NCBI GenBank assembly: GCA_024275415.1
Contig: JAJRZD010000025.1
Location: forward strand, 39,069 to 71,068
Direction of reading: 5' to 3'
Source: an archaeon
Lineage (GTDB): Archaea > Asgardarchaeota > Thorarchaeia > Thorarchaeales > Thorarchaeaceae
DNA: 32,000 nt
In this document: one piece after another, positions 1,643-29,900 of the stretch
Position numbering within the stretch: the stretch's first letter is position 1
Layout of the letters: the number at the start of each line of letters is the position of its first letter
The notes under the pieces: generated by a model
Told to the model about the DNA's origin: nothing
Database searches by the model: none
The model's input: only the letters and a program-made list of their open reading frames with translations
Program-made: the position numbers and the translations under genes

Positions 1643-3346
1643 ATGCCAAATCCAATGAATCCACTGATAGTGCAATCGGACAAATCAGTCCTGCTGGAAG
1701 TGGACAATCCCAGATACGAGGAAGCAAGAGATTCACTGGCTAGGTTCGCAGAGCTAGTCAAAAGTCCAGAATATGTCCATACCTATCGTGTTACACCTTT
1801 AAGCTTGTGGAATGCTGCTGCGATGGGGATGACTGCCCGTGAGGTTGTCGATGCCCTTGAGGAGTATGCAAAATATCCAATACCAGGAAACATATCTAGA
1901 GAGATTGTCGAGTACATGAGCAGGTATGGCCAGATCACACTGCATGCAATAGGAGATGACCTTCTCCTTGAATGTGCAGACGAAGATTTGGCAGCTGAAA
2001 TCTGGCAAAGCAGGAAGCCCAGAGAGTACCTTATTGAACCAGTCGATGAGAGAACGTTCCTAGTCGATCCCATCAACCGCGGGAACCTGAAACATGCACT
2101 ACTGGAGATTGGACACCCAGTCGAGGATCTTGCAGGGTATGCCGAGGGTGAACCTTTGCATTTCGAGCTGCGAGATGTGACACTTGAAGGGAAACCATTC
2201 GCTCTAAGAAAGTACCAGAAGGAGGCGGTGTCTACGTTCCATGCAGGCGGGGGAATCAGAGGTGGGTCTGGCGTCATTGTCCTACCATGTGGAGCTGGGA
2301 AGACCATGGTCGGTATAGGTGCTATGCATGAACTCCAAACATCAACAATCATCCTGTGTCCCAATGTGGTTGCTGTTAGACAGTGGGTAAAGGAACTCCT
2401 CGACAAGACCACCCTTACTGCAAATCAGATTGGTGAGTACACTGGAGAGGACAAGTCGATTCGCCCTGTCACTGTGGCGACCTACCAGATACTCACTTGG
2501 CGCAAGTCTCGGGATGATGAATTCGAGCATTTCCATCTCTTTGATGCCCGGAACTGGGGACTGATAATCTATGATGAGGTGCATCTCCTACCAGCCCCAG
2601 TCTTCCGTGTCACCGCTGCAATCCAGGCAACACGACGGTTGGGATTGACAGCCACTCTAGTTCGTGAAGACGAACGAGAAGAGGATGTCTTCAGCCTGAT
2701 TGGACCGAAACGCTATGATATGCCATGGAAGCAGCTTGAGGATCAAGGATGGATTGCCACAGCGATATGTTACGAAATCCGGATTGACCTTCCCGATAAG
2801 ATGCGTCGGAAATATGCCTTGGCTGAAGATAGGAAAAAATACAGGATTGCAGCCGAGAATCCCATAAAGATACAGCTCATCAAGGAACTCATCGACTATC
2901 ACAAGGATGACAACGTCCTCATCATAGGAATGTACCTTGACCAGCTCAAAATGATAGCTGATGAAATCAAGGCGCCTCTAATCACGGGCAAGACTACCAA
3001 TGAGGACAGGCAAAAACTGTATGAGGCATTCAGAGAGGGCCGTGAGAAGATACTTGTCGTATCTAAGGTTGCAAACTTTGCTTTGGACCTTCCTGACGCC
3101 AATGTAGCAATACAAGTATCGGGAACATTCGGGTCGAGGCAGGAAGAAGCACAACGACTGGGAAGGATCCTGCGCCCAAAGTCAGATGGTAGCTTTGCAA
3201 GGTTCTACTCGATTATCACAAAGGACACGAGGGATATGGACTTTGCTGCAAAACGCCAGCTGTTCCTTACCGAGCAAGGATACCAGTACGTCATCGCCTC
3301 AGCGGATGAAGAGATTTGGAGAAAGGACCCTCAGAGCTTCTTCTAG
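1643..3346 (+). CDS. xpb: XPB/Ssl2/Rad25 DNA repair helicase, long form with N-terminal Helicase_C_3 domain
   Basis: SF2 motifs GVIVLPCGAGKT (I), IIYDEVH (II), LGLTATLVRED (III plus RED motif) and SRQEEAQRLGRILR (VI). N-terminal PLIVQSDKSVLLE...YRVTPLSLWNA domain is characteristic of bacterial and eukaryotic XPB. Confidence 0.95.
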   Translation: MPNPMNPLIVQSDKSVLLEVDNPRYEEARDSLARFAELVKSPEYVHTYRVTPLSLWNAAAMGMTAREVVDALEEYAKYPIPGNISREIVEYMSRYGQITLHAIGDDLLLECADEDLAAEIWQSRKPREYLIEPVDERTFLVDPINRGNLKHALLEIGHPVEDLAGYAEGEPLHFELRDVTLEGKPFALRKYQKEAVSTFHAGGGIRGGSGVIVLPCGAGKTMVGIGAMHELQTSTIILCPNVVAVRQWVKELLDKTTLTANQIGEYTGEDKSIRPVTVATYQILTWRKSRDDEFEHFHLFDARNWGLIIYDEVHLLPAPVFRVTAAIQATRRLGLTATLVREDEREEDVFSLIGPKRYDMPWKQLEDQGWIATAICYEIRIDLPDKMRRKYALAEDRKKYRIAAENPIKIQLIKELIDYHKDDNVLIIGMYLDQLKMIADEIKAPLITGKTTNEDRQKLYEAFREGREKILVVSKVANFALDLPDANVAIQVSGTFGSRQEEAQRLGRILRPKSDGSFARFYSIITKDTRDMDFAAKRQLFLTEQGYQYVIASADEEIWRKDPQSFF

Positions 3347-4164
3347 ATGGTATTGTCGTTCTTTGGCGGACTTGCCTCGTAGGATGATATCTTGCGGGCT
3401 ATGGCCTTGAGTTCATCAAGTCCAAGCCTACGAATGCCCTGCTTGCCGACCTCAAAAGTGACCCACATCGGATTGTGCGGGGCCCCTTTCACTTTTGTGA
3501 CTCGGAACTGTTTGATCAATACACCAGCCCCCTCAAAGACTGGTTCGTGCCGGGTGTCGATGATGATATCGCTACTGTAGGTAATCATGTCGTCGTATGC
3601 AGCGAACTGCTGGAGTCCGGTGTGGTATGTTGCCCAGCACGGTATGTATAGGTTCTTGCAAAATGTCGCACGCCATGCCTTGATAGCATTGACTGCTTTG
3701 AATGGATGAGACTGGAGAAAAAGCTCCGTTATGCTATCGACAAAGATACCTCCAAACTCCATGTTATTTTCCAGTATCAACCCATGAATCGCATCACTGA
3801 TATGATCTGGTTCTGTCGGTTCTCTGACGAGAGTTACATGGTCATACTTGGCAGTTTTTCGAAGGATTTGGCTTGAGAAGCAGTCTACCAGATGGATAAG
3901 TCCTGACTCAAGAATCTCTTTGTAGTCCAGTCCCAGATAGCATAGGTTCTGTAATACAGAAACAGGTGTGTCTTCAAAGCATACATAAATGGCTTTCTTA
4001 CCGGATCTCATAATATGCCGAACCATCTCATTCAACAAGACAGACTTGCCGCCTCCGCCAGGACCACGGATCACCCCGAATGCGTTCGTTGGGAGTCCTT
4101 CAGGCACCTCGGTATCTAGGATGTCAATCCCCGTCCGGTATAATTCCCGTCCTTTTGCGAGCAT
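3343..4164 (-). CDS. KaiC/RAD55/GvpD-family RecA-fold ATPase, single domain
   Basis: RTGIDILD start of the RecA fold, Walker A GPGGGGKS, YVCFED, Walker B IFVDS and C-terminal VTKVKG. The ORF track starts at 4299, but the first 45 codons look non-homologous. ATG 4164 (about 27 nt downstream of TTATTTAA) or TTG 4179 is more likely. Confidence 0.82.
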   Translation of the reverse strand: MLAKGRELYRTGIDILDTEVPEGLPTNAFGVIRGPGGGGKSVLLNEMVRHIMRSGKKAIYVCFEDTPVSVLQNLCYLGLDYKEILESGLIHLVDCFSSQILRKTAKYDHVTLVREPTEPDHISDAIHGLILENNMEFGGIFVDSITELFLQSHPFKAVNAIKAWRATFCKNLYIPCWATYHTGLQQFAAYDDMITYSSDIIIDTRHEPVFEGAGVLIKQFRVTKVKGAPHNPMWVTFEVGKQGIRRLGLDELKAIARKISSYEASPPKNDNTI

Positions 4165-4333
4165 ATCTTCAAGACTCAATTCAAACCCCCTTAAATAACG
4201 AACATCGTAGTAGAATAATGTATTGCCTGTATCGAGTGGCACATAGTGAAAACAGACACAACCACTCGATTTATATGGGAATAGTATTTCATATGTCATA
4301 ATAGGATATATCGAAACCGGGTGTGTTCAAGTT

Positions 4334-4576
4334 ATGAAGATCATGAATGGTAGTGAGTCTGCGGCTGGAACCAATCCTATGCTTCTCAAGATACGGCATG
4401 CAGCATTGAACAAGGCGTTTACCCAAATCCGAGAGAAACGTTTCAATCTAGATGAGTCAAGAACCAACGGATGGATATCCGAAGAAGAATATCAGAAGGA
4501 ACTTGTGAACCTCATTCTTGAAGGGAATAAAATCCGAATGGAGCAGAAACAAATAGAAGAATACCTGAAGCTATAG
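4334..4576 (+). CDS. Small helical hypothetical protein, possible SHOCT-like motif
   Basis: 80 aa, charged and helical. LDESRTNGWISEEEYQKELVNLI resembles the SHOCT pattern (G-x-I-[ST]-x-E-E-[YF]). Fills the gap between neighbouring genes. Confidence 0.55.
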   Translation: MKIMNGSESAAGTNPMLLKIRHAALNKAFTQIREKRFNLDESRTNGWISEEEYQKELVNLILEGNKIRMEQKQIEEYLKL

Positions 4577-5527
4577 CCAAAAGCTCAGAAAATCTTCAAA
4601 AAGTTTCAATTTGGAGTTCACATAGTCAAGGATTAACCTCTTCTGTAATCGACCAAGTAGGACTGGAGCAAGCTGTTTCGTTTCAATATCACATAGTATC
4701 TGAATGCTCCATTTTATGACGCTGCAAAGTCCAAGGACAATCATCCATCTCCAATGCTCTGTTGAGCATCCTTCTGCCTTCTTGGACATCAGTCCCTGAA
4801 GGGTAGAGGAAGGATGTTGGACAAACAGATACGCCCAATCGTAGTAACGGCTGATGCCGCAACAGTCTTCGAGGTCTATGAGGATTGCACGATGCTTTTG
4901 GAAAAGGACATTCTTTTCGGAAAGGTCGCCATGTGATGTCACTGGATTCCAGTGTTCGGTACCAGACACCATGACAGACCTTTGTACAAGCCGACAGAAC
5001 TCCATGACCGTGCCCATGAGGGTGTCTGAAAACGCACAATCATGATTTTGGATAATGTCATCAAGAGATGATGCAATCTCCATGAGGAAACCATGAGCGT
5101 CACGGTATATTGGGATTGAGTGGAGGGTGATAGCAGATAGTCTGCTAAGAGAGTTACGTAGTATGTGAGAGTCTTCAAGAGTGATCTCAAATGGCGATTC
5201 ATATACGAGCCCGTTGATATATTCTAAAACCAGCATAGATAGACCGTATTCTTTTGAAAGGACGCCATAGAAAAGCGGACGAGGACACAGGTCGTGCTTT
5301 GAGATGGCATTGTGAAGATAGTAGAGCCGTTCAAGGTCGCGGTTTCCCATGGAGCGCGGAATCTTTAGGACGAAGGATGGAATACCATCCACGTAGCCCA
5401 AAAGATTGACTGTGGACCAACCGTCCAATATGACAGGATCCAAGTGAATCTCACCTGCCATCTCTAGGACGGATGATAGTTTCTCTTCAAGCATTTCTTT
5501 CGTATGTCCGTAATAATCCCATCCCAT
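4571..5527 (-). CDS. Aminoglycoside phosphotransferase / choline kinase-like (APH-family) small-molecule kinase
   Basis: FVLKIP (ATP-binding Lys), Brenner motif SHGDLSEKNVL and metal-binding ILIDLE. Confidence 0.8.
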   Translation of the reverse strand: MGWDYYGHTKEMLEEKLSSVLEMAGEIHLDPVILDGWSTVNLLGYVDGIPSFVLKIPRSMGNRDLERLYYLHNAISKHDLCPRPLFYGVLSKEYGLSMLVLEYINGLVYESPFEITLEDSHILRNSLSRLSAITLHSIPIYRDAHGFLMEIASSLDDIIQNHDCAFSDTLMGTVMEFCRLVQRSVMVSGTEHWNPVTSHGDLSEKNVLFQKHRAILIDLEDCCGISRYYDWAYLFVQHPSSTLQGLMSKKAEGCSTEHWRWMIVLGLCSVIKWSIQILCDIETKQLAPVLLGRLQKRLILDYVNSKLKLFEDFLSFWL

Positions 5528-5579
5528 ATATCGAAGAATGCGGGATATCTACTTAAAGAATCTTGAACGATTATACGAT

Positions 5580-5867
5580 ATGAAGGGAAAGGACATTCTA
5601 CTGATGCTATCACATCTGTTTAGGAAATGTGGAAGGTCTGTTTCATTGGGCGATGCGATCCATCACCTTTCATTTGAATGGAGGTATGGCGAACCCACAA
5701 AGATTAGAAAGATCCTTGCAGTAGCTGTTGAGAATGAGATGATTTCATTTGCTGATGGTAGAATAACTGCAGAATTCATATTCAATATCCAGAAACTGCA
5801 TCCGAATCAGGCCGACATCTTGAGTAAGCAGCAAATCAAGAAAGAAGATGTGATACCCCTCTATTAG
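5580..5867 (+). CDS. Small archaeal winged-helix-like protein, DUF2240-like
   Basis: Pattern LSHLFRKCG...LSFEWRYGEPTKIRKILAVAVENEMI...ITAEF resembles archaeal DUF2240. ORF track start is 5538; ATG 5580 leaves room for a TATA at about 5552-5558. Confidence 0.55.
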   Translation: MKGKDILLMLSHLFRKCGRSVSLGDAIHHLSFEWRYGEPTKIRKILAVAVENEMISFADGRITAEFIFNIQKLHPNQADILSKQQIKKEDVIPLY

Positions 5868-6985
5868 GTAGTGTCGACCATATTAGCAATTGACGCAAGC
5901 AACGCTGTGAGATGGATGTGAGGGTTCTTTCCCTGAATCATCCTATAGTCTATTTCTGCGATCCTGTCAATGATGTGTCGCACTGTATGGGGTTCTAGAG
6001 GACGTTTAGCAATCTCACGTTGAACCTGAGCAATGACCTCTTGAGGAGTGTATTGTTCCATAGTAAGTAGGTTTCTAAGCGCTTTACGTGCCTTGAGATA
6101 CTTGTTATCCAATGCTTGTGATATCATGCTCCGCACTCCTGATGTCAAAGGAGTGTCAGCAAACGCATAGACTATGTCCTCGGTAATGGTCTTTCCCGAG
6201 GCGGCACACATTTGGAGCAAGTTCAATGCCCGACGCATACTGCCGTTGGACTCGCGGATGATGGCATTCAACCCGTGCATATCAATATCTACCGATTCCT
6301 TCTCTGAAACCATAGACAAGAGCTGTGTGATATCTTCAGGGGTAGCTGCCTTGAAATGGACAGTAATACAGCGAGATATGATTGCTGGGTTCCAACCAGC
6401 GAGGGAGGGGGTCACTAGAACGAACCTGCATGTATCTGAGTATATCTCCATCGTCCTCCTGAGTGCCTGTAACATGTTGTTGTCAAATGCATCCGCCTCG
6501 TCAAGAACCAGTATCTTGACCATATCACTACCGACAGCGGCAGTAGAAGCAAACATCTTCACCGCCTGATGAAGCAGCTGGCTTCTGTTAGGAATCCCAG
6601 TCATTCCTTTCGCCTTTAGCTCCGCTTTTGCCTCGCGATAGACTACAGACATGTACTCGTCCAGCTCAGAGCGAGCTGCCCTGTCCAGCTTTGCCAATGC
6701 TTGGATTTTTCGTTTCGCAGCAGAGATTGTGAATGAGCGCAGGTCGCGAATATTGAGCCATTTGAAGTTGGATGTGAATTCCGACTCTAACACATGTCTT
6801 GCATAGGCATATGCAGCCAGAGTCTTTCCCGTACCAGAAGGGCCGTACAGAAGCAGATGAGGAACCGTCTTGGATTCGGCAAGGGATCTAAGTTGATTGA
6901 TCGCTGTTTCCTGCCCAATGAACTCGTCCCAGGTAGTTGGCTGGTATTTTATGCTCCAGAGAACTGGTTCCAATGAATACACCAA
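5864..6985 (-). CDS. rfcS: Replication factor C small subunit paralog with internal insertion
   Basis: WSIKYQP (RFC box II-like), PHLLLYGPSGTGKT, ILVLDEAD, QALRRTME, SRC arginine finger, GSMRRALNLLQ and C-terminal IAEIDYRMIQGKNPHIHL collar. TTG/GTG start. Confidence 0.9.
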   Translation of the reverse strand: MVYSLEPVLWSIKYQPTTWDEFIGQETAINQLRSLAESKTVPHLLLYGPSGTGKTLAAYAYARHVLESEFTSNFKWLNIRDLRSFTISAAKRKIQALAKLDRAARSELDEYMSVVYREAKAELKAKGMTGIPNRSQLLHQAVKMFASTAAVGSDMVKILVLDEADAFDNNMLQALRRTMEIYSDTCRFVLVTPSLAGWNPAIISRCITVHFKAATPEDITQLLSMVSEKESVDIDMHGLNAIIRESNGSMRRALNLLQMCAASGKTITEDIVYAFADTPLTSGVRSMISQALDNKYLKARKALRNLLTMEQYTPQEVIAQVQREIAKRPLEPHTVRHIIDRIAEIDYRMIQGKNPHIHLTALLASIANMVDTT

Positions 6986-7127
6986 GTGGAAGTGTCCGAC
7001 CTGCCAAAATAAGGTTACCTTTTAGTTTATCAGTAAATGAAGTCTAATAGATTGACCTTAACCGTAATGGTCAAATACGCTCGAACGCTGGGCGCTTGTT
7101 TGCAAATTCTCAATTCGAGGTTTCGAA

Positions 7128-8831
7128 ATGGCAAAAGAATCCCTAGAGAAAGAATTGGAACATATGTTCAGAGAAGATCTTGTCGTTGCCTGCCAATATT
7201 GGGATATAGATATCAGCAATAGTTCGTCAGGGAAGGAACTCACAGTGCTCCTGGCAAAAAAAATGAAGCAAAAGGAATCCCGTGAGAGAATATTCTCAAG
7301 CTTTACTGACCAAGAAAAGGATCTACTAGGTCTCCTGACATTGAGCGGGGGAGCGATGAGCTATGATAGACTAAAGCCATTTCGTAAGATATACAGCTAT
7401 GGACAGCTGAATCAGACAGAAAGGGATCTCAGGAAAAAAGGGTTGATCATCCGAAGAATGATGTCACGTCTCACCGAGTTCGGACGTGAAGTCGCAGAAT
7501 TCAAGATTCTCGATTTCTTCATCCCACACCTGAAGAAATACTTCTCCGCAAAACCCGAGCTAACAAAAGAGAAGCCAAAGAAAGCTCGTAATTTGGTGAA
7601 CGAACGCGATTCGCTCTTGCTCGACACATTGTTACTGACATCATACATCGCAAAGAATGAAGTCAAGATGACCAGCTCATGGGAGTTTCCGAAGAGGGAG
7701 ATTGAACACATAAAGAAAGGCATGTCAAAAGCTCGCGATGATAGGTTCGAGCTTGTACAGCGGATTGCACGGAAAGCAGGCGCGTATGAGATTGTCGAGA
7801 AGGATAGGGTTGTTCAGGGCAAAGTGAAAGATCTTTTTGCAGGAACACAAGAACAGGTAGCCACAAAGTTCCTGTTGTCGGCTGTGGGTAGGACACGAGC
7901 TATCTGGGCGACTCCCGACCAGCCTACAGAGTACACTCTCAATCTAATCATCTGCCGCCTCCGAGAGGCCAACACAAAGGATTGGATCAGTGTAACGGAG
8001 ATGCGTGACTGGATTCGAAGCGAACTCTTCATAGACGGGCAACCACTGAAATGGATACAAATCACAGATGAGCGGGTGAGTATCGCCCTAGAAACACCAA
8101 TCCTGCTGGGTCTAGTAGAAGGGGCATATAAAGGGAAAAATCTTCTAGCTGTGCGTCTTACCGACATTGGTGGTGCCGTCATTGCGGGACTTCCAAGGGA
8201 AGAAGTGTCAGGTCAGGAAACATTCATCGTTCTTCCAAACTTTGAAGTGACGGTGTTCTCAGCAGAAATGGACTATTACAAATTATATCGACTCATGCTC
8301 ATCACAGAGCCCATCAAGACCGACGTTGTAAGTACATTCAAACTCACAGAATCGTCAATATTCCATGCAGTCGAACTTGGATATCGAGAGAATGATATCA
8401 TCGCATTCTTAGAAAGTGAGAGCTCAAAGCCAATTCCCGCGAACGTCATCAGATCGATAAAGGATTGGACTTCACAGACCACCTTTGCTACGTTATCTGT
8501 GGTCACCCTATTTGAAACCGAGTCAGTGCAGGAAATGGAGAACCTTCTCTTGATGCCTGACTTCAATAGGCACCTTGTAAAACGGGTTGGACCTACGGCG
8601 GTCATCATAAAAGGGGACATTGAGGAGTTCATCGATGAGATGCAAAAGCACAAGTGTCATGTAACTCGATCTGATGTCCAAGAGAGGGAAGATGAAGAAG
8701 CTTCAAGCACTCGTGTTTCTGAGCAGGCATTGCTATATGGTGATAGTCATGGTGCGGAAATCCCTGACAATTGTTCAGGATGTCCAGCATTCCAATCATG
8801 TAATAGGGTGTTGAAGAGAAAGACAATATAG
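7128..8831 (+). CDS. XPB-associated Helicase_C_3-domain protein (TFIIH p52/Tfb2-like architecture), no helicase motifs
   Basis: Segment FIVLPNFEVTV...TFKLTESSIFHAVELG...IIAFLESESSKPIPANVIRSIKDW parallels the XPB N-terminal domain in this same window (LIVQSDKSVLL...TYRVTPLSLWNAAAMG...VVDALEEYAKYPIPGNISREIVEY). Long helical N-terminal part and no Walker motifs. Confidence 0.75.
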   Translation: MAKESLEKELEHMFREDLVVACQYWDIDISNSSSGKELTVLLAKKMKQKESRERIFSSFTDQEKDLLGLLTLSGGAMSYDRLKPFRKIYSYGQLNQTERDLRKKGLIIRRMMSRLTEFGREVAEFKILDFFIPHLKKYFSAKPELTKEKPKKARNLVNERDSLLLDTLLLTSYIAKNEVKMTSSWEFPKREIEHIKKGMSKARDDRFELVQRIARKAGAYEIVEKDRVVQGKVKDLFAGTQEQVATKFLLSAVGRTRAIWATPDQPTEYTLNLIICRLREANTKDWISVTEMRDWIRSELFIDGQPLKWIQITDERVSIALETPILLGLVEGAYKGKNLLAVRLTDIGGAVIAGLPREEVSGQETFIVLPNFEVTVFSAEMDYYKLYRLMLITEPIKTDVVSTFKLTESSIFHAVELGYRENDIIAFLESESSKPIPANVIRSIKDWTSQTTFATLSVVTLFETESVQEMENLLLMPDFNRHLVKRVGPTAVIIKGDIEEFIDEMQKHKCHVTRSDVQEREDEEASSTRVSEQALLYGDSHGAEIPDNCSGCPAFQSCNRVLKRKTI

Positions 8832-8846: not shown

Positions 8847-9881
8847 ATGACGAAAGCCATCCTACCTCACGAACTAAGAGGACGATTTCTAGGCGTTGGA
8901 AGTGTTGTTGAGGAATGGGAAGGAGAAGCGTCGGAGTACATCCCAAAGATCTCTTTACCTTATGCATATCAAAGACCTGCCAGGCCGGAAGAGGATATGA
9001 TTCGTCAATTTGGGAGTGTGCTTACGGGATTCGAGGAGAAGGGCACATTCGTCTTTGAAACAGGATTTGACGAGTATCAAAATATGATCCGAGGCGAGGA
9101 GGACATACTTCCTGCCGAACAGTATTTTGAATCACTTTACAAGTTACCGAAACACGGACCGTTCAAATATCTGAAAACTCAGGTGACATCACCAGCCACC
9201 ATGTGTTACAGCATACGAGGGGAAGATGGACGACAGCATCTCACACCTCAAATGTTCAGGTTCTTCTCATCACTCATCTCTCGAATAATGAAGGGCTTTG
9301 TTGCTCACTTTGCCGAATCCGTGGAAACTCTCATGGTCTGTCAGGATGATCCTGCATTTGGGTTTGTGAAAGACATGATCGAATCGGAGAATGCTCCGGG
9401 GCTCTCCGCTCATCAGGTTATGAGAGTGATTGACCGAATATTCCCTTCGGAAGTAATCCCTGCTTACCACTACTGCTACGATTGGAGAGTATTGATGGAT
9501 AAAGGTAGGCACCTGATATGGCAAAGTAAGCCAAAGGTCGTCCACATTGATACAATAAACTATCCTCCTGAAATAGATGCCGGGCAAGGTGAACTTATCA
9601 ACAAATTCCTACAGGCAGGAGGGGGCATCGCACTTGGAGTCATCGCGAACGTGGACAGTGCATTCACAGAGCTGGTCATCTCATACTACGAAAAATCGCT
9701 CAAAAAGACGATTTCCTTATTTGTAAGGGCCGGCGTAAATATTGACCTGCTGAAAGAGAACACAATGGTTTCCACTCAATGTGGTCTTTCAGGAGCGACC
9801 CCAAATCTATCGCGTCAAATCCATTCCCATGATCAGACATATTCTGAGATACTGGAACAAATATACAACTCGTTCCAATGA
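8847..9881 (+). CDS. Cobalamin-independent methionine synthase catalytic-domain (core MetE / URO-D barrel) protein
   Basis: LGVGS start, QRPARPEEDMIRQF, LKTQVTSPAT, CQDDP, Zn-type H-x-C (YHYC) and C-terminal STQCGL. Only one barrel; the folate-binding half is absent. Confidence 0.7.
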   Translation: MTKAILPHELRGRFLGVGSVVEEWEGEASEYIPKISLPYAYQRPARPEEDMIRQFGSVLTGFEEKGTFVFETGFDEYQNMIRGEEDILPAEQYFESLYKLPKHGPFKYLKTQVTSPATMCYSIRGEDGRQHLTPQMFRFFSSLISRIMKGFVAHFAESVETLMVCQDDPAFGFVKDMIESENAPGLSAHQVMRVIDRIFPSEVIPAYHYCYDWRVLMDKGRHLIWQSKPKVVHIDTINYPPEIDAGQGELINKFLQAGGGIALGVIANVDSAFTELVISYYEKSLKKTISLFVRAGVNIDLLKENTMVSTQCGLSGATPNLSRQIHSHDQTYSEILEQIYNSFQ

Positions 9882-10135: not shown

Positions 10136-10981
10136 GTGGAAAAAGAAAGCAATCAGCCAGGACCCATTATGAGATTCATCCAGGATTACCGTCTGAAGAT
10201 GCTTGTTCCAGAATTGCTTGTAGTGTTTGGCGTCTGGTACATGTTACCTGATTCGCTGACTACGAATGTCTATCTGATATACATGGATTTCCTAGGGCCG
10301 CTGGTATATGCCTTGCAACCGCTGTTCTTCATTCCTAGTGGAATATTGGCATTCCTTACAGCATTCACATTGCACGGGATATACCCCCTTGATAACTATC
10401 ATGAAGGAAAGATCCCTGACCTCCCGAGGGGTGCTGTCATAATGATCATCATCTCGTTCATCTTTCTCCCATGGTTGGTCTTGATGCAGATGATCGGCTA
10501 CTACATGACAGAAGCGACAGAGTACATCAGCAGGAACCCATTCTGGGAGCGAGTGGAGAGCTTTGGCGATCTGCTTTTCTATGCAGGAGCCATGTTCTTC
10601 GTCGGGCTGCAATGGTGGCTTCTCATCCCAGTGTTCTTCCTTAGTCAGGGAGTCGATGGGATACACAAGATTGCTCACCATGAAACATCCAGTGAGAAGA
10701 TAACATGGATATTCTATTTCCTCTGGCCTATCACTATACCCATCTTCTTCCAACCAGTAGAAATCTTTGCAATGGCGGCAATCTCAATCCCGGCATTTGC
10801 ATTCTACGGGTATATTAGGCCATATTATACCTATGTCAACGCCGTTCATACTCTGACCTTTGCAGCACTGGTCATTGTATCTCTCGTGCTTGCACCCTAC
10901 TTGCCCCTCCTGAATGTGTGGCTTCCAGGGAGTATCCCTGAGATAATGCCACCTAGAATATTCCCAGATATTGGATGGTGA
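10136..10981 (+). CDS. Hypothetical polytopic membrane protein (about 7 TM)
   Basis: 281 aa, mostly hydrophobic helices. GTG start preceded by AGGTG. Confidence 0.65.
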   Translation: MEKESNQPGPIMRFIQDYRLKMLVPELLVVFGVWYMLPDSLTTNVYLIYMDFLGPLVYALQPLFFIPSGILAFLTAFTLHGIYPLDNYHEGKIPDLPRGAVIMIIISFIFLPWLVLMQMIGYYMTEATEYISRNPFWERVESFGDLLFYAGAMFFVGLQWWLLIPVFFLSQGVDGIHKIAHHETSSEKITWIFYFLWPITIPIFFQPVEIFAMAAISIPAFAFYGYIRPYYTYVNAVHTLTFAALVIVSLVLAPYLPLLNVWLPGSIPEIMPPRIFPDIGW

Positions 10982-23023: not shown

Positions 23024-23205
23024 TATGTTGCCTCCCAGCAAACGGCATTTCTACGTTCTCGCTTCAACTTAAAAACTACCTGCCATGTCCTTTTTGGATT
23101 GGTGGTGGTTATTAGTGGCGCGCAATACATAGAGATGAGATGAGGAAAGCCAAACCCAATCTTACCACAGGATTCCATACTGCAGACCAGATAGTCAGAG
23201 TGAGG

Positions 23206-23904
23206 ATGAGCACTGGGATAACTGTAATTGATGAGCTACTGGGGGGAGGGATTGAGAGTGGGCTCATTCATCTATTCTATGGTGATAAGAGTTTGTACAG
23301 TGATATCCTGAAGATTGCAGTCCACGCACAGATCCCAGAAGATAGAGGAGGACTTGGAAGCCCAACAATCATTATCGACAGTGCGAACATCCTGAAAATT
23401 GAAGAACTGACCGACAATTCTTTCGAGTTCGAGCTGGAACCGGAGGAGGTGATGGACAGCATATACATCACCCGAGCATTCAGCTCGTCTCAAACATACG
23501 ACCTAATCATGAATCATCTGGATGGCTTCTTCAAACGTGTACCTGCACGGGTTCTCATGGTAACGGGGCTGCCAGACCTGTACATCAAAGAGGGCATTAC
23601 CTCAGAGGGAACACAGCAAATCACACATATGATCACAAAATTGATGACATTCACGCTGGGAAGAAGAATATTCACCATAGTCACTGCACCGCTGTCAAAG
23701 AAGTCGCAGTTTCTACCGGCTGGCGGGACTGCATTGGCAAGTTGCACGCAGGTACACATTCATGTGAACGAGAGGAGGTCGTACGTTAGATATACGCTTG
23801 CCAAGCATCCCAGTTTACAAGTCAGGCGAACCTCAAGATCAAAGATGGCAGATTTTGGGACGACACCACCTCTATCGTATTTCTTGAAACCCGAAGACCA
23901 ATGA
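23206..23904 (+). CDS. Inactivated RadA/Rad51-like (RecA-fold) protein lacking the N-terminal domain
   Basis: STGITVIDELLGGGIESGLIHLFYG; AQIPEDRGGLGSPTIIIDS; EEVMDSIYITRAFS all match the RadA core. The P-loop reads GDKSLYSD and Walker B reads LMVTG. ATG 23206 follows GAGTGAGG. Confidence 0.78.
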   Translation: MSTGITVIDELLGGGIESGLIHLFYGDKSLYSDILKIAVHAQIPEDRGGLGSPTIIIDSANILKIEELTDNSFEFELEPEEVMDSIYITRAFSSSQTYDLIMNHLDGFFKRVPARVLMVTGLPDLYIKEGITSEGTQQITHMITKLMTFTLGRRIFTIVTAPLSKKSQFLPAGGTALASCTQVHIHVNERRSYVRYTLAKHPSLQVRRTSRSKMADFGTTPPLSYFLKPEDQ

Positions 23905-23949: not shown

Positions 23950-26900
23950 CTATTCCTTCTCTACACCCAGGCTCCGTAATAGTTCGTCCACGAGCTCGCG
24001 TGGGAGGTCTCTTGCCTGTTCAATGATCGTATCAATCTCGTGAGGTTGGACTCCCTTTGCTTCGAGGTCTTTCCGGAGTTCCTCTATTTCGTAATCACTG
24101 AGCTTGTCGGTTATCTTCAAGGGTTCCTCGGTTCGAATCTCACGGGCGATGTCGGCCTTCTCTTCTGTAAGGATGCCTGGTTCTTCGGGGATCTTCTCGC
24201 TTGGTTCTTCAGGTGTCAGGAAGATGGGAACATCAGGAGAGGGCCCGATTGCATATTCTTCGGTTGCCTCGGTACCGCTTAGCCGCTGCTTGGCCTCTCG
24301 TTGGATACGCTCCAGAACCTCTTCCATGCTCACACCATCTTTGCGAGCTGCGCGGATTGCTTCTTGATCAATGACTTCTCTCACAAAAGCGGCCTGCTCG
24401 CTCAGTTTCATCTTTGAAATATCCGCCTTGAACTCGTCAAGCTCATCAGGGCTCAGGTTGGTAAGAATTGAGAGCTGTATCAGGAGTTCGCCCATCTCGG
24501 GGATATCAACCGGTATTGACTCCTCAGGCATCATGTCGGCTGTCCGAGTTATCTCAAGTTCCTTGTTCGTGTCATTGAAGAGATCGGCTACGACCTGTTG
24601 CCGGGTTCGAACGTCATCGATAGGCTTGGGAACCTTGCCCTTTCGCAATGCCTTAATCTGTCCATTGATTTGTCTGAGTCGCTTAGGAATGCTAAAGTAT
24701 CTAACCCACGCAATTCCAAGCACCAGTCCAAATATGATGAGCGGAGTCCCGAAATTAATCACATTGGATGTAAGTATCTGGGTTTCTGTTGGGATTAGAT
24801 TCACATGCAATACGAGGGTCTTTGTTTCATAGTTGTTGCGTGATATGACAATAGTGACATCAACTCTCTGTTCGAAAGTCGTGGGAATGGTATTCGCAGG
24901 AGCGAAAATCTCGATGTAGTAACGACCATTCGAATCAAGCGAGCCATTGCCCACTACTTGAAGCAACGCCTCTGATGAGCTGATTCCAACAATCTGAGCT
25001 AGAGTGATTCCGGATCCATAGTAATCGCCCCATGTTTCGATGTACTCCAAGCTAATCATACCAGTTTCTCCATAGAATAGAGAAGTGGTTCCTTCATAAG
25101 GTTCGTCTGTAATCACATTATCATCATCAAAGGACGCATCGGTAGGACGTTCTATGATAGTGACCGATATCTCACTGTATTGTGACTCTCGGTAGTCAAG
25201 TGAAACTGTCACTGAGAGCGTGAACGGATCTTCAACAGGTTGAGTGATGTTGTTTAGAGCCTTGTAGAGCCACAACTCGTTCGTATCGAAGCGATATCGA
25301 TACCAACCATCACCAAGTTCAAGCACCGTTACCTCAATCTGTCTGCCACCAACTGCACCGCCGAAAACAAGGGCATAAACGGTTGCGCCAGAGAGACCTC
25401 CAATATAGCCTTCTGAGTTATCAGTATCGTTGTAAAAGAATTGAATATCAACATATTCGCCCACAGGAACTACAAGGATTGCATGACTACTTGTGACAGG
25501 TGCCAAGTTCAGTTCGGGGGACACTACGACCAGTTCTGTCGGGACTTCCTCGACAGTGATATCGATACCACCACTGCTGACCAAGAAGTTAGACTTCAAA
25601 AAGTCAACTCGCAGGGGGTACCTTGCAATATCAAGGAGAGAGGTGTCTATATAGATCGCGTAGTACCCATTACCAAGGTCAATAGCCGACCCATTGAAAT
25701 CACCATAGCGATAGAATACGTTGGCACCTACAATCCCTCTGACGAAGTGAGTATCATTGTAGTAGAAAGAAACGTTTCCTTTCCAGCCCCAAGGAACACT
25801 AAGATTTGGAGGGTTGATGACTTCTGTAGGTATCTGCTTCACAGTGAGGGTAAGACTCACAACGTCTTGTGCCAAGTTAGGGTCACTAGGAGTACCTCGG
25901 AAGGTCACACCCCAAGTCCCAAACTCAAGCACAGATGCATTGAAGGAGAGTTCCCAAACACCATTCCCTAACGAAGTGAAATTCCATCGCCCCTTGCTTT
26001 CGAGGCTCCACCAGACTGCACCAGAAGATATTAGGTCGCCACTTACCGTCTGGTTGAAACGGAGTGTGAACACGATGATATCGTTATAGAAAACTGACAT
26101 CTCTTCGCGGGTATCACCATAGAGCGCCAAAGTGGTGTCGGTTGTTTCTATGAAAATCTTGAAGATACTGCTAGCAGTGTCATAGTTCCTGAATGACGCT
26201 GAAATTCTGACGGAGTAAATCTCTCCAGGGGTTAAGGCTGCAGTAGCTGACGAAGGTAGGGTGAAGTTCCAAGTGGCAGACGAAGCGGAATAGACCATAT
26301 CCCAAGACATTCCTTCGAACGTGACTGTGGCAGTAAGGACGTAACTCGAGTCTACCAGCCCACCATTGTAGGTGTCATTGAGAAACACGGCAATATCCTG
26401 AAGGTTGCCTCTAGGCAAAGAAATGGTCTGTTCGAAGGGTTCTTCGATGGTCAGGTCGCTCGGTAGATTCTGAAGAACTAGCGTCACTGTCGCAGTGGAC
26501 GTTTGAAAGCCATTCTTTGTGGCAGTTATCCTAACTGTTCGCGTGCCTGCAAGAACACTAGATGTCGGAATCAGGGCTGTATAGAAACCTCCGCCTGCGT
26601 CAGTGAATACACCAGTTGTGCCATTGAGATCCCATTCGACCAATGCACCTGGAGTAGTATTGCCATATAGAAGATTATTCAATGTCACAGAGATTGAGGC
26701 GTCCTCACTCCAATACAGCGTCACCTCAGAGTCTGTTGCGTCTAGGGATGCTGCAATGCTAATTACATTGAAGGATGGATTGGTCTCGGATTGGAGATGC
26801 TTGACTTTGAAGGCTGTTATATTCAACGTGTAAGTGTTGGTTTCAGGAAGACCTTTCGTACTGATTGTGATATTGTATCTTCCATCATTTAGATCCTCTA

Positions 26901-29900
26901 TACTGATCAGATTCAGCGTTAAACTGGTATTCTCATAAGCGACAAGTATTGTCGCATTTGCAATACCACCTCCGTGGTCGAGATCGGTGTACGTTACAAT
27001 GACAGAAACATTCTCGGATATCTGAACCGAGGAGGGGCTAGGAATGTCCGCTTGCAGTACCGACCAGACCAGATCGACCGAACCAGTCAGTCCTATCGTT
27101 GATCGGTTTCTGTAGTAGGGCTCTAATGAGGGATCCCAGTGTACATCCAAGTCAAAATGGAAGACTCCCAGGTCACTTTCAGTAAATACAATAGAGTCTG
27201 TATCGAAGGTGATATTATACTGACCTGCATTCGCTCCAGTCCCCTCAGTGAGGGTGTAAAGGCCTGTCAGGTCAGCTTCTTGGCAATTGAACAGTATGTC
27301 AGCGTTTGAAACAGGAGTGCCAGTCGCGTCATCACTCACGAGGAAGGTGATGGTTATGTTATCACCCCAAGGAGTGGTTTCAATTGACCCCACTTCTACG
27401 AAGAGTACCCGACCGCGCGTGGAAACTCTGAGTGCAGTGGTCGCATCCTCATAATACGGTGCATTGGCAGCATTCCAATCAATGACAATGGTTATGTTGA
27501 ATCCATCAACCAATGTGTTGCTGAGTATCGTGGAATTGATTGACACTTCAAACAAGTCGCCAATTCGAGTAAGAACGAATTGGTTTGATGCTAGAAGACT
27601 CCCATTCGAGTAAAGCATGATTTCGTTCGATGTTATAGCTGAGATAGGAATACCATCAATGGTGTCAGTGTACCTGAACGTGAACGTCACATTGTCAAGA
27701 TAGGGTGTTGATGATGGAGGTGAAATAATCTCGACCTCGGTGGTTCGTTCTATCACTCGCACGGTGATGTTCTGGACGGCATTGTCCCGATATGGTGCGC
27801 CGCCTGTCCAGACAGCAGTCACTCTGAGATCATGGATATTCAGGGTGCTGAGACTTGTAGCATTCACTGAAATAGCATAGTATCCGCCCCCGAGAGGAAC
27901 AAAGATGAAATCAGTATTTAGAACAAGACTGTGTGTTTCATTCTCTACCGTGAAAGTTGTAGAAGTGTCTATTCCTACAGAAACATCGACATCCCAGTAA
28001 TAGAATGTGAAATTGATATACTCATTGTAAGATGTGGGCTGAGAGCCGTCAGAGATGTCCAATGATGTGGCACGGGTACGGATGGTGAAATACACATAGA
28101 CATCATCCCATCTGTAGAAGGGAGCCTGATATATGTAGCTCATGTTCAGGTGCAAAGAGTACTGAAACCCTACAGATAGAGTCGATTGACCTGCGGTTTC
28201 AATAGACATGTCGTATTGACCTAGGGTCGGATTCCATGCGATTGTGAAGACCCAAGGAGTGCCAGTATCGTTGAGGATAGTGATTGTCGTTGTAGAGGTG
28301 TTTGCTATATTCGCCAAGGTCAATTGGTCTTGGTAGTACAAGGTGATTTCGATTGGAGTACCGTATCCCACAGACGCGACTGGATCTGCTGAGAGAATGG
28401 TTCCCCTGAATCTCACATTCATCGGGCGAATCGCATAGTTATCCGCCTTGTACTCGGTGCCAGTGTAGACAAAGCTCGCATTCAGGTCGTAGGTTCCAGG
28501 TGTTGAGAAGTAACCTGTGTAGAATTCGACTACAAAGGAACCATCTCCTCCGGGCGTGACCAAGTAGTTCTGGCTAGGTATCGGACTTCCGGAATAGTAT
28601 AATGTCAAAGTGGCATCAGGAATTCCAGTGTTTATTACCCCGGAAAGGTCGATGTACCATATCGTGAAAGTGACATTGTCCCCATAAGGAGTGGGAACCG
28701 GAGCCTGAAAATCAACTTGGGTCTGCCGGTATGTTACAGTGACATAGATGGCTTTCCCTGTCTGATTGGTATAGAATGGGGCACCTGCCCAGGTGACGTT
28801 CATGGTGAAGCTTTGATCCCCGACTGTACCAAATTGGTTGGTATTGAAAGACACTGTGAAAGTCCTTGTCGGATCATCATAGTATAGGGAATAATCGGCC
28901 AGACTCAGTTGTATCGACAGCGCCACATCATTAGCTATTGGCTCAGAAAGAGCGCCTGTCACATCATTGAATGTGAACGAGTAAGTGGCATTCTCACCAT
29001 ATGCGGTCTGTGACGGCGGGTCGATGCTTATGAGTGTGTCCCGAGCAAGCACACGTACTGAGATTACATCGGTTCTATTGGTATAGTATGGAGAAACACC
29101 TTTCGACCAATTGATGAAGACGTTCATGTAGACAAGACCGGTTGTTGCGAGTATCGAGTTGTTGAACTGGATCGAATATTTACCGCGCTCAGTGACAGGG
29201 TCAATCTCCCATATATCAACTTGAGTCAGGTCAACGGAAACCCCTTGAAATGAAACGCTGATGAAGACATTACCTGTGGAGTTTGATATTCCAGTCCCAT
29301 TGGACGCTGCATAGAATAACACGTATGTCATATTCTCAAGGTACGGAGTAGGCTCGGCTGTAGCGAGCAGGCTCAGCTGAGAATCCTCTCCTATGATGTT
29401 CGCAGAAACTATCAACGTGCGGTTCTCGTATGTATAGACCGGGCCAGTCCAATTGAAGAATATCGTGAAGTTCTGTAGTCCAAGACCTGCAAACTGCGGG
29501 GCTGGAACTGTGATGATGTAATACCCACCGCCAAGAATAGTATCATTATCGAGGTAAGAGATGACATTATGAGTGCCATTCCAGACTCTGTGTGCAACAT
29601 CCTTTGATGCAATACCAGTGCCGCTGTCCAAATCACCATAGAACACAGAAATGGTGATGTTGTCATTGTAACTTGTCGGTTCCACTGCACTGACCAACCT
29701 GAAGTCAGTGTAGTGAGTCCGTATAGTAATCGAGATATTGAATATCCCAAACTGGTAGTTCTCTCCTTTAGAGAAGTTGAAAGTGATGATGAGATTCTGC
29801 ACCAATGCATCATCCTCAAAGGTCGGGAAATCAACGCGATACCTTCCTTCTCCGGGAATGTATGTGAACGTCACGGGATGTATCCAAGTAGAGGTGGCTA

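Follow-up and report, generated by a model that had tools for sequence, protein, structure and literature searches.

A long-form XPB and a p52-like partner protein in Thorarchaeales: a candidate prokaryotic relative of the TFIIH translocase module

The current analysis concerns two genes in a 32,000-nucleotide stretch of a Thorarchaeaceae genome (assembly GCA_024275415.1, contig JAJRZD010000025.1, positions 39,069 to 71,068; hereafter the window), one encoding a long-form XPB helicase/translocase (1643..3346, plus strand) and the other a protein resembling the p52/Tfb2 subunit of eukaryotic TFIIH (7128..8831, plus strand). We consider it probable, at roughly 65%, that the products of these genes make up the two halves of an XPB-p52-like translocase module of prokaryotes, in which the partner protein would hold XPB and modulate its ATPase and which would act in the processing of DNA damage. 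The occurrence of these two genes together goes far beyond chance. The source genome, which is of Thorarchaeota type, 3.5 Mb in size and 92.9% complete, contains exactly two genes with the Pfam domain Helicase_C_3, namely those for XPB and its partner, and in more than 100 Thorarchaeota clusters the partner keeps 63-81% identity.

Apart from XPB and XPD, the subunits of TFIIH have been said to lack prokaryotic homologues (PMC3353954, from 2012; PMC13153155 and PMC13024598, both from 2026), and a 2026 perspective describes the remaining subunits as absent from Archaea (PMC13153155), while archaeal XPB is said to work with Bax1 (PMC3353954; PMC13153155; PMC13024598). No published description of a prokaryotic p52-like protein or of an XPB-partner pair was found in the literature. 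The domain itself is already labelled in the databases, as Helicase_C_3 in Pfam and as "helicase-associated domain-containing protein" in NCBI, the latter being the name given to orthologues of the partner. Should the proposed module prove real, the pairing of XPB with p52 would be older than eukaryotes, a simple two-protein system would be at hand in which to study the control of the XPB motor by p52, and there would be a hint of the functional requirements of prokaryotic long XPBs, which are poorly understood.

Fold and domain plan of the partner protein

The partner is a protein of 567 aa in which no helicase or ATPase motifs are seen, and its sole Pfam match is Helicase_C_3 at residues 388-450 (43.7 bits against a cut-off of 34.2). 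Its likeness to p52 is clearest at the level of the fold. When an AlphaFold model of the full-length protein (mean predicted local distance difference test score, pLDDT, 85.6; predicted template modelling score, pTM, 0.75) was compared with the PDB by Foldseek, the top 18 matches were all p52/Tfb2 chains over about 530 aligned columns, the best being 8ebs_D (E 4.1e-11, 532 columns) and 6trs_B (E 1.4e-9). XPB chains followed over about 160 columns, and unrelated proteins appeared only from E 0.02. By VIA, residues 52-508 of the model were placed on human p52 41-458 (343-383 residues, Z 12-14) and residues 142-452 on C. thermophilum p52 124-435; the global root-mean-square deviation (rmsd) from p52 is high because the inter-domain angles differ. 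Given these fold matches, the plan of the partner fits that of p52 as laid out by Kappenberger et al. (PMC7708078), with an N-terminal domain (NTD), two middle domains (MD1 and MD2) as well as a C-terminal domain (CTD) whose fold is that of p8. The models support a partner that is p52-like over its whole length, with the four-domain NTD-MD1-MD2-CTD plan found at the level of fold.

Within this plan, residues 1-355 (7128..8192, plus strand) are predicted to form an array of winged helices that corresponds in fold only to the NTD and MD1 of p52, and whose single winged helices resemble those of MarR and ArsR proteins (VIA, Z about 10-11). The clutch domain that follows (residues 361-452; 8208..8483, plus strand) has the fold of p52 MD2 and of the XPB N-terminus; its superposition with residues 71-164 of human XPB, the N-terminal domain, gives Z 15.9 and rmsd 1.5 A at 25% identity. 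In an alignment of 72 partner relatives (A1), the most conserved residues family-wide are P370, F372, P437, N439 and W447. Next comes a p8-like domain equivalent to the p52 CTD (residues 455-510; 8490..8657, plus strand), with fold matches to Tfb5 and ctp52, in which the segment FATLSVV...TAVII takes the order beta-alpha-alpha-beta-beta-alpha with block-mean pLDDT of about 90-93. Folded alone, the clutch and CTD together gave a pLDDT of 89.8 and matched p52 chains in Foldseek with TMq of 0.58-0.65 and rmsd of 4.1-4.9 A, so that in the model both domains stand to each other as they do in p52. Among 48,161 representative chains, only three reached Z of at least 5 against this two-domain unit, namely XPB (14.4), C. 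thermophilum p52 332-492 (11.9) and yeast Tfb5 (5.3), and the third of these, a match of p8 to the CTD of the partner, covers 55 of 65 residues at rmsd 2.3 A.

The evidence from sequence is weaker than that from fold, yet it points in the same direction. The best PDB match of the A1 profile is Tfb2 (E 6e-6), and a profile of the clutch-CTD unit (A3) matches human p52 305-458 (E 7e-7) as well as human XPB 19-173 (E 8e-9), in each case over both sub-domains. Two relatives of the partner, with 38.4 and 38.9 bits, pass the 34.5-bit cut-off of the Pfam Tfb2 model (PF03849), while the scores of orthologues and relatives range from 16.7 to 38.9 bits and always cover model positions 240-357 only. An earlier, sequence-only reading of this DNA had described a non-helicase protein at 7128-8831 that repeats the XPB N-terminal pattern and continues into a small alpha/beta domain, and had likened it to p52 with a p8-like end. 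All of this is borne out by the models: the repeated pattern lies in residues 361-452, which superpose on the XPB NTD, the small domain in residues 455-510, the full-length fold search returned p52/Tfb2 chains at its 18 top ranks, and the comparison with the clutch-CTD unit gave Tfb5 at Z 5.3.

The A3 profile also matches the N-termini of prokaryotic XPBs (E 1e-13 to 8e-24), and the clutch-CTD unit (8208-8657) and the N-terminus of the window XPB (1664-2122) correspond across both sub-domains. As the match extends over both, part of the XPB N-terminal module corresponds to the p8-like domain too, and by these profile comparisons MD2 plus CTD of p52 looks like a duplicate of that whole module.

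The partner ends in a Thorarchaeota-specific tail (residues 511-567; 8658..8831, plus strand) that has no counterpart in p52. At least 95% of 119 orthologues keep the motif C548-x2-C551-x6-C558, which precedes a basic stretch, and at least 80% keep C510, just upstream of the tail, which makes a four-cysteine set (window 8655-8801); the pLDDT is low at residues 518-544. In their spacing, these cysteines recall motifs by which DNA-repair proteins bind zinc or a 4Fe-4S cluster. At the same end, a WYL domain takes the place of the cysteine tail in many bacterial partners.

The XPB gene and its predicted pairing with the partner

The reading of the gene at 1643-3346 as a long-form XPB is confirmed by the position of the open reading frame (ORF), by its Pfam domains and by its NCBIfam equivalog score. 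The protein, likewise of 567 aa, comprises Helicase_C_3 at residues 8-131 (118 bits), ResIII at 187-340 (RecA1) and ERCC3_RAD25_C at 365-557 (RecA2), and it matches NF045503, "DNA repair helicase XPB", with 871.8 bits against a cut-off of 610, over model positions 1-547 of 548. Both the general superfamily 2 (SF2) motifs and those specific to XPB are invariant among 45 orthologues, including Walker A GAGKT (217-221), DEVH (311-314) and RED (341-343), as are Q500, R505, G507 and R508 of motif VI. Judged by these motifs, XPB is an intact SF2 protein and presumably a DNA-dependent ATPase/translocase. Its best phmmer matches in the PDB are yeast Rad25 (293 bits) and human XPB (283 bits), and the short XPBs of Archaeoglobus (152 bits) and Sulfolobus (128 bits) score lower.

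The XPB N-terminal domain (residues 8-131; 1664..2035, plus strand) is the predicted docking surface for the partner. Predictions that combined full-length XPB with partner residues 355-515 gave interaction prediction scores from aligned errors (ipSAE) of 0.64, 0.62 and 0.64, whereas none of three controls exceeded 0.00; the ipSAE mark used here is reached by 58 of 80 solved complexes and by 2 of 110 mismatched pairs. The runs share at least 92% of their contacts, with partner pLDDT of at least 84. The predicted contacts are reciprocal and run strand to strand, pairing XPB 42-45 with partner 367-375 and XPB 9-12 with partner 399-401. On the XPB side, the predicted contact residues are 9-13, 17-21, 40-45 and 78-81, all of which are invariant in the XPB alignment (A2); on the partner side they are 367-375, 399-401 and 434-443. 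These contacts coincide with the top conserved positions of both proteins, namely P370, F372, P437 and N439 of the partner and I9, Q11, D13 and P42 of XPB, while W447 of the partner lies just outside the predicted interface.

These features allow a mechanism to be proposed. The beta-sheet of the partner clutch would pack on the homologous N-terminal domain of XPB around a pseudo-two-fold axis, as p52 does in TFIIH, and this pairing would both hold XPB and tune its ATPase, as p52 and p8 do (PMC7708078). The winged-helix array and the Cys-rich basic tail may target the motor to DNA or other factors. Such a module would presumably act in DNA-damage processing and stand in for XPB-Bax1 in a lineage that has mostly lost that pair, the usual one in archaea. 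No role in transcription is implied, because archaeal initiation needs no ATP (PMC13153155).

The closest eukaryotic system is the XPB-p52-p8 part of TFIIH (Ssl2-Tfb2-Tfb5; PDB 6NMI, 7NVV, 6TRS, 8EBS; PMC6422496, PMC7708078). Like it, the Thorarchaeal pair comprises a long XPB with an N-terminal clutch-type domain and a partner with the NTD-MD1-MD2(clutch)-CTD plan, whose clutch shares the XPB NTD fold and is predicted to pair with it pseudo-symmetrically, sheet to sheet, and whose modelled CTD resembles p8 in fold. Unlike in TFIIH, free-standing p8, p34, p44 and p62 were not detected in the Thorarchaeal genome, and the XPB is devoid of the eukaryotic N- and C-terminal extensions. The partner also differs from p52 itself in having a clutch that shares more of its sequence with the XPB NTD, at 25% identity, than with the clutch of p52, at 12-18%, in falling under the Pfam Tfb2 threshold and in its extra Cys-rich basic tail. 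Regarding the other subunits, the genome, at 92.9% completeness, gave no match to Pfam Tfb5 (p8), with which the p52 CTD pairs in TFIIH, or Ssl1 (p44), nor to Tfb4 (p34), the anchor of the p52 NTD in the TFIIH core, although the Tfb4 control was positive in no genome, so that this blank says little. In the search for a free-standing p8-like gene, the CTD as a protein query returned the partner itself only, and a hidden Markov model of the CTD run against 52,308 six-frame ORFs of at least 35 aa found only the partner and XPB at E <0.01. Small divergent p8-like proteins in the genome could escape these searches.

Archaeal XPB-Bax1 (PDB 6P66, 6P4F; PMC7293015, PMC7672443) is comparable as well, in that it also joins an XPB motor to a dedicated non-helicase repair partner. 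However, the XPBs of this pair are short forms that lack the clutch domain, whereas the Thorarchaeal XPB is a long form, and Bax1, unlike the Thorarchaeal partner, is a nuclease that binds the ThM/HD2 region.

Distribution, ancestry and alternative readings

When the distribution of Helicase_C_3 was surveyed across 301 Asgard genomes, of which 76 belong to the same family (Thorarchaeaceae), 1 to a sister family in the same order and 224 to 28 other families, genes with this domain were found in 74 of the 76 and in the single sister-family genome, and in none of the 224. In about 50 genomes the two copies share a contig and a strand, at a distance of 4.4-8.5 kb; in one complete genome they are 72 kb apart. 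The survey of co-occurrence that the sequence-only reading had called for thus finds the pair tightly co-conserved within its own family. Bax1 (DUF790, PF05626) had no match at E 0.1 in the source genome, given its 92.9% completeness and with the controls positive, and it is present in 4 of the 76 Thorarchaeaceae genomes versus 98 of the 224 from other Asgard families. Helicase_C_3 and Bax1 are, in other words, nearly complementary in their distribution (74/76 and 4/76 here; 0/224 and 98/224 elsewhere).

The same pair is common in bacteria, where its family is widespread, in agreement with the analogous bacterial gene pairs that had been mentioned in the earlier reading. Over its whole length, the window XPB shares 49-56% identity with XPBs from Cyanobacteriota, Actinomycetota, Deinococcota and Bacillota, and each of these has a clutch-CTD partner adjoining it or a few kb off. 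Named loci, taken from a plasmid collection, pair XPB with a "helicase-associated domain-containing protein" in Paenibacillus cellulosilyticus, Deinococcus sp. QL22, Actinomyces oris, Tsukamurella tyrosinosolvens and Acaryochloris marina. The two genes adjoin in Paenibacillus, Acaryochloris and Gloeocapsopsis, adjoin save for one small ORF in Deinococcus and Actinomyces, and lie 3.5 kb apart in Tsukamurella, and overall the pair is found in operons of at least four named bacterial phyla. The two protein families are those of the window, since the bacterial partners share the clutch and CTD (A3, E 1e-11 to 5e-43) and the fold; the full-length fold of the Thorarchaeal partner reaches a TM score of 0.68 to a Spirochaetota-dominated cluster, and further clusters come from Myxococcota, Chloroflexota, Bacillota and Fibrobacterota. 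Bacterial partners are, however, longer, at 622-847 aa, often end in WYL and are sometimes duplicated, in contrast to the 567 aa and Cys-motif tail of the Thorarchaeal protein, and they usually abut XPB in an operon, whereas the Thorarchaeal partner is three or four conserved genes away. Metagenome XPBs that are 64-66% identical to the window XPB form operons in which they overlap with one partner or two, and some of these partners have WYL at their end. One of them, P0385 (66% identical), comes from a Guaymas Basin sediment contig (L023:10001-13950) and overlaps a 758-aa partner with WYL; as its neighbours give mixed signals, we refer to P0385 merely as non-Thorarchaeal.

Some of the related loci have additional small ORFs. 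A hypothetical gene of about 99 aa stands beside the partner in Deinococcus sp. QL22 (L016:7753-8052, plus strand) and in Actinomyces oris (L019:4208-4507, minus strand), and in contig L010 a 71-aa ORF precedes the partner. These are candidates for free p8-like subunits; no counterpart of them was found in the Thorarchaeal genome.

Two trees bear on ancestry, one of XPB rooted on haloarchaeal forms and one of the clutch and CTD rooted on XPB N-termini, both built without eukaryotic sequences. In the XPB tree, the Thorarchaeal clade falls within the long-form clade with bacterial and unplaced sequences around it, but in an approximately unbiased (AU) test, a tree keeping bacterial XPBs together and apart from archaeal ones was not rejected (p 0.224), so the XPB tree cannot show that the Thorarchaeal clade is nested inside bacteria. 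The clutch-CTD tree, whose backbone is weak, places the Thorarchaeal clade among metagenome sequences and spreads the named bacterial partners over several branches. As a rough stand-in for a tree that includes eukaryotes, phmmer bit scores to the yeast and human XPB chains of the PDB were compared with the 293 and 283 bits of the window XPB. The XPBs of Acaryochloris (283 and 267), Paenibacillus (275 and 251) and Tsukamurella (281 and 242) score lower, as does P0387 (284 and 269), while the non-Thorarchaeal P0385 scores 315 and 300, the highest tested. Since P0385 outscores it, the Thorarchaeal XPB is not specially close to eukaryotes.

It follows from these bit scores, together with the confinement of the pair to one Asgard order, that exchange with bacteria is judged likelier than an Asgard-to-eukaryote line. 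Most likely, Thorarchaeales share the module with bacteria through ancient horizontal transfer, the direction of which we infer, rather than holding it as an Asgard heirloom passed on to eukaryotes. The sequence-only reading had raised the pair as a possible precursor, or relative, of the TFIIH translocase module; the relationship stands, whereas the precursor role is disfavoured by the restriction to one order among the 301 genomes, the bacterial spread and the closer P0385. It would require a vertically inherited Asgard module that became the XPB-p52(-p8) of eukaryotic TFIIH and was lost from the other Asgard lineages. The full p52 architecture in an Asgard archaeon would suit such a scenario, as would bit scores somewhat above those of all but one of the five XPBs compared, bacterial or of bacterial look, and an AU test that does not reject a tree with bacterial XPBs grouped apart from archaeal ones. 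We nonetheless regard direct ancestry as unlikely, because no genome among the 224 from the 28 other families carries the domain, P0385 lies nearer to eukaryotic XPB, the window XPB is 64-66% identical to XPBs on non-Thorarchaeal contigs with partner operons, the clutch tree sets the Thorarchaeal clade among metagenome sequences with bacterial partners across its branches, and the genome has no match to p8, p34 or p44. A broader proposal would treat the prokaryotic XPB-partner pair as the ancestral form of the TFIIH translocase, with MD2 and CTD of p52 duplicated from the XPB N-terminal module, and in its strong version would make the Thorarchaeal copy, clustered with a variant replication factor C (RFC) gene and a kinase-like gene, the Asgard stage on the eukaryote line rather than a bacterial import. 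Taken jointly, these suppositions appear equally improbable. The pair may instead serve as a caution against taking every eukaryote-like Asgard gene as ancestral, as its distribution points to bacterial exchange.

It is also conceivable that the two proteins act independently, the partner being a multi-winged-helix DNA-binding regulator that works without XPB and whose proximity to it is mere synteny. The resemblance of its winged helices to MarR/ArsR repressors (Z about 10-11), the separate transcription units in a strand-alternating stretch, the existence of relatives with no XPB nearby and the ligand- or ssDNA-sensing WYL domain of many relatives are all compatible with this scenario. It is difficult to reconcile, however, with the exactly two Helicase_C_3 genes of the source genome, which co-occur in 74 of 76 related genomes, with the placement of the top conserved residues on the predicted XPB-contact surface and with bacterial XPB and partner genes that overlap or abut in operon-like fashion, and we consider it rather improbable. 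Even less can be said for an anti-phage or plasmid-borne system in place of a chromosomal repair factor, which strikes us as very unlikely. Bacterial copies do occur on plasmid records, beside restriction genes or transposases, and XPB weakly matches the PbeA helicases of PADLOC (96 bits), but such matches are at the level of any SF2 protein when set against the 872 bits that XPB scores with its equivalog model, and PADLOC gave nothing for the partner. Furthermore, in nearly every Thorarchaeota genome the pair is present as a syntenic single copy, in chromosomal surroundings that are stable and include RFC, malic enzyme and peroxiredoxin genes, and no integrase or defence genes were seen near it.

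Several observations weigh against the XPB-p52-like module that we favour. XPB and its partner do not form one operon, as 3.8 kb and four genes on alternating strands intervene, and some relatives of the partner have no XPB within 10 kb (in a Euryarchaeota bin and in contig L010). In the models, the correspondence of the N-terminal part of the partner to p52 is one of fold alone. The partner itself has no match to Pfam Tfb2 even at E 10 and is therefore not filed as a member of that family. The heterodimer put forward in the sequence-only reading has gained a predicted clutch-to-clutch interface (ipSAE 0.64), but the binding itself is a prediction only; because TFIIH structures were available to the predictor, the passing score may reflect likeness to TFIIH instead of binding by this particular copy, and in the predicted complex the p8-like domain makes no confident contact with RecA2 of XPB. 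As to the direction of transfer, the AU test does not reject bacterial XPBs held together apart from archaeal ones (p 0.224), and no experiment places any of the prokaryotic long XPBs within a defined pathway of repair (PMC3353954).

Neighbouring genes

Between XPB and the partner, which are encoded on the same strand with 3,781 bases between them, lie four genes. The first (3343..4299, minus strand) encodes a KaiC-like RecA-superfamily ATPase (PF06745); it is missing from this position in a diverged syntenic contig, L007, and is therefore probably not part of the module. The other three positions are kept in the L007 lineage, in which the order XPB-APH-DUF2240-RFC-partner is conserved even though the partner is 38% and XPB 65% identical. 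They correspond to an APH-family kinase-like protein (4571..5527, minus strand; PF01636), a small 109-aa protein (5538..5867, plus strand) that has no Pfam match in the window copy but occupies the position of a DUF2240 gene, its L007 counterpart carrying PF09999, and a variant paralogue of the RFC small subunit (5864..6985, minus strand; 373 aa; Pfam Rep_fac_C). This last protein scores 263.8 bits against the NCBIfam model of the RFC small subunit, under the cut-off of 303, and has an insertion in the N-terminal ATPase part. Its gene is transcribed divergently from that of the p52-like protein, and a more typical copy of the RFC small subunit is encoded on contig C43 of the genome; the variant could be a damage-specific clamp-loader subunit.

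Downstream of the partner, a 344-aa gene (8847-9881) was considered as a third member of the module and rejected, as no similarity connects it with the 343-aa gene found upstream of XPB in L007 and it is not the conserved neighbour. That neighbour is instead a membrane protein (10136-10981), at 41% identity. The Thorarchaeota neighbourhood also includes the malic enzyme and peroxiredoxin genes mentioned above. Further along the window, a 254-aa Rad51/RadB-like gene (23140-23904, plus strand) is followed by a giant ORF (23950-32000, minus strand) of more than 2,647 aa, which continues past the window end.

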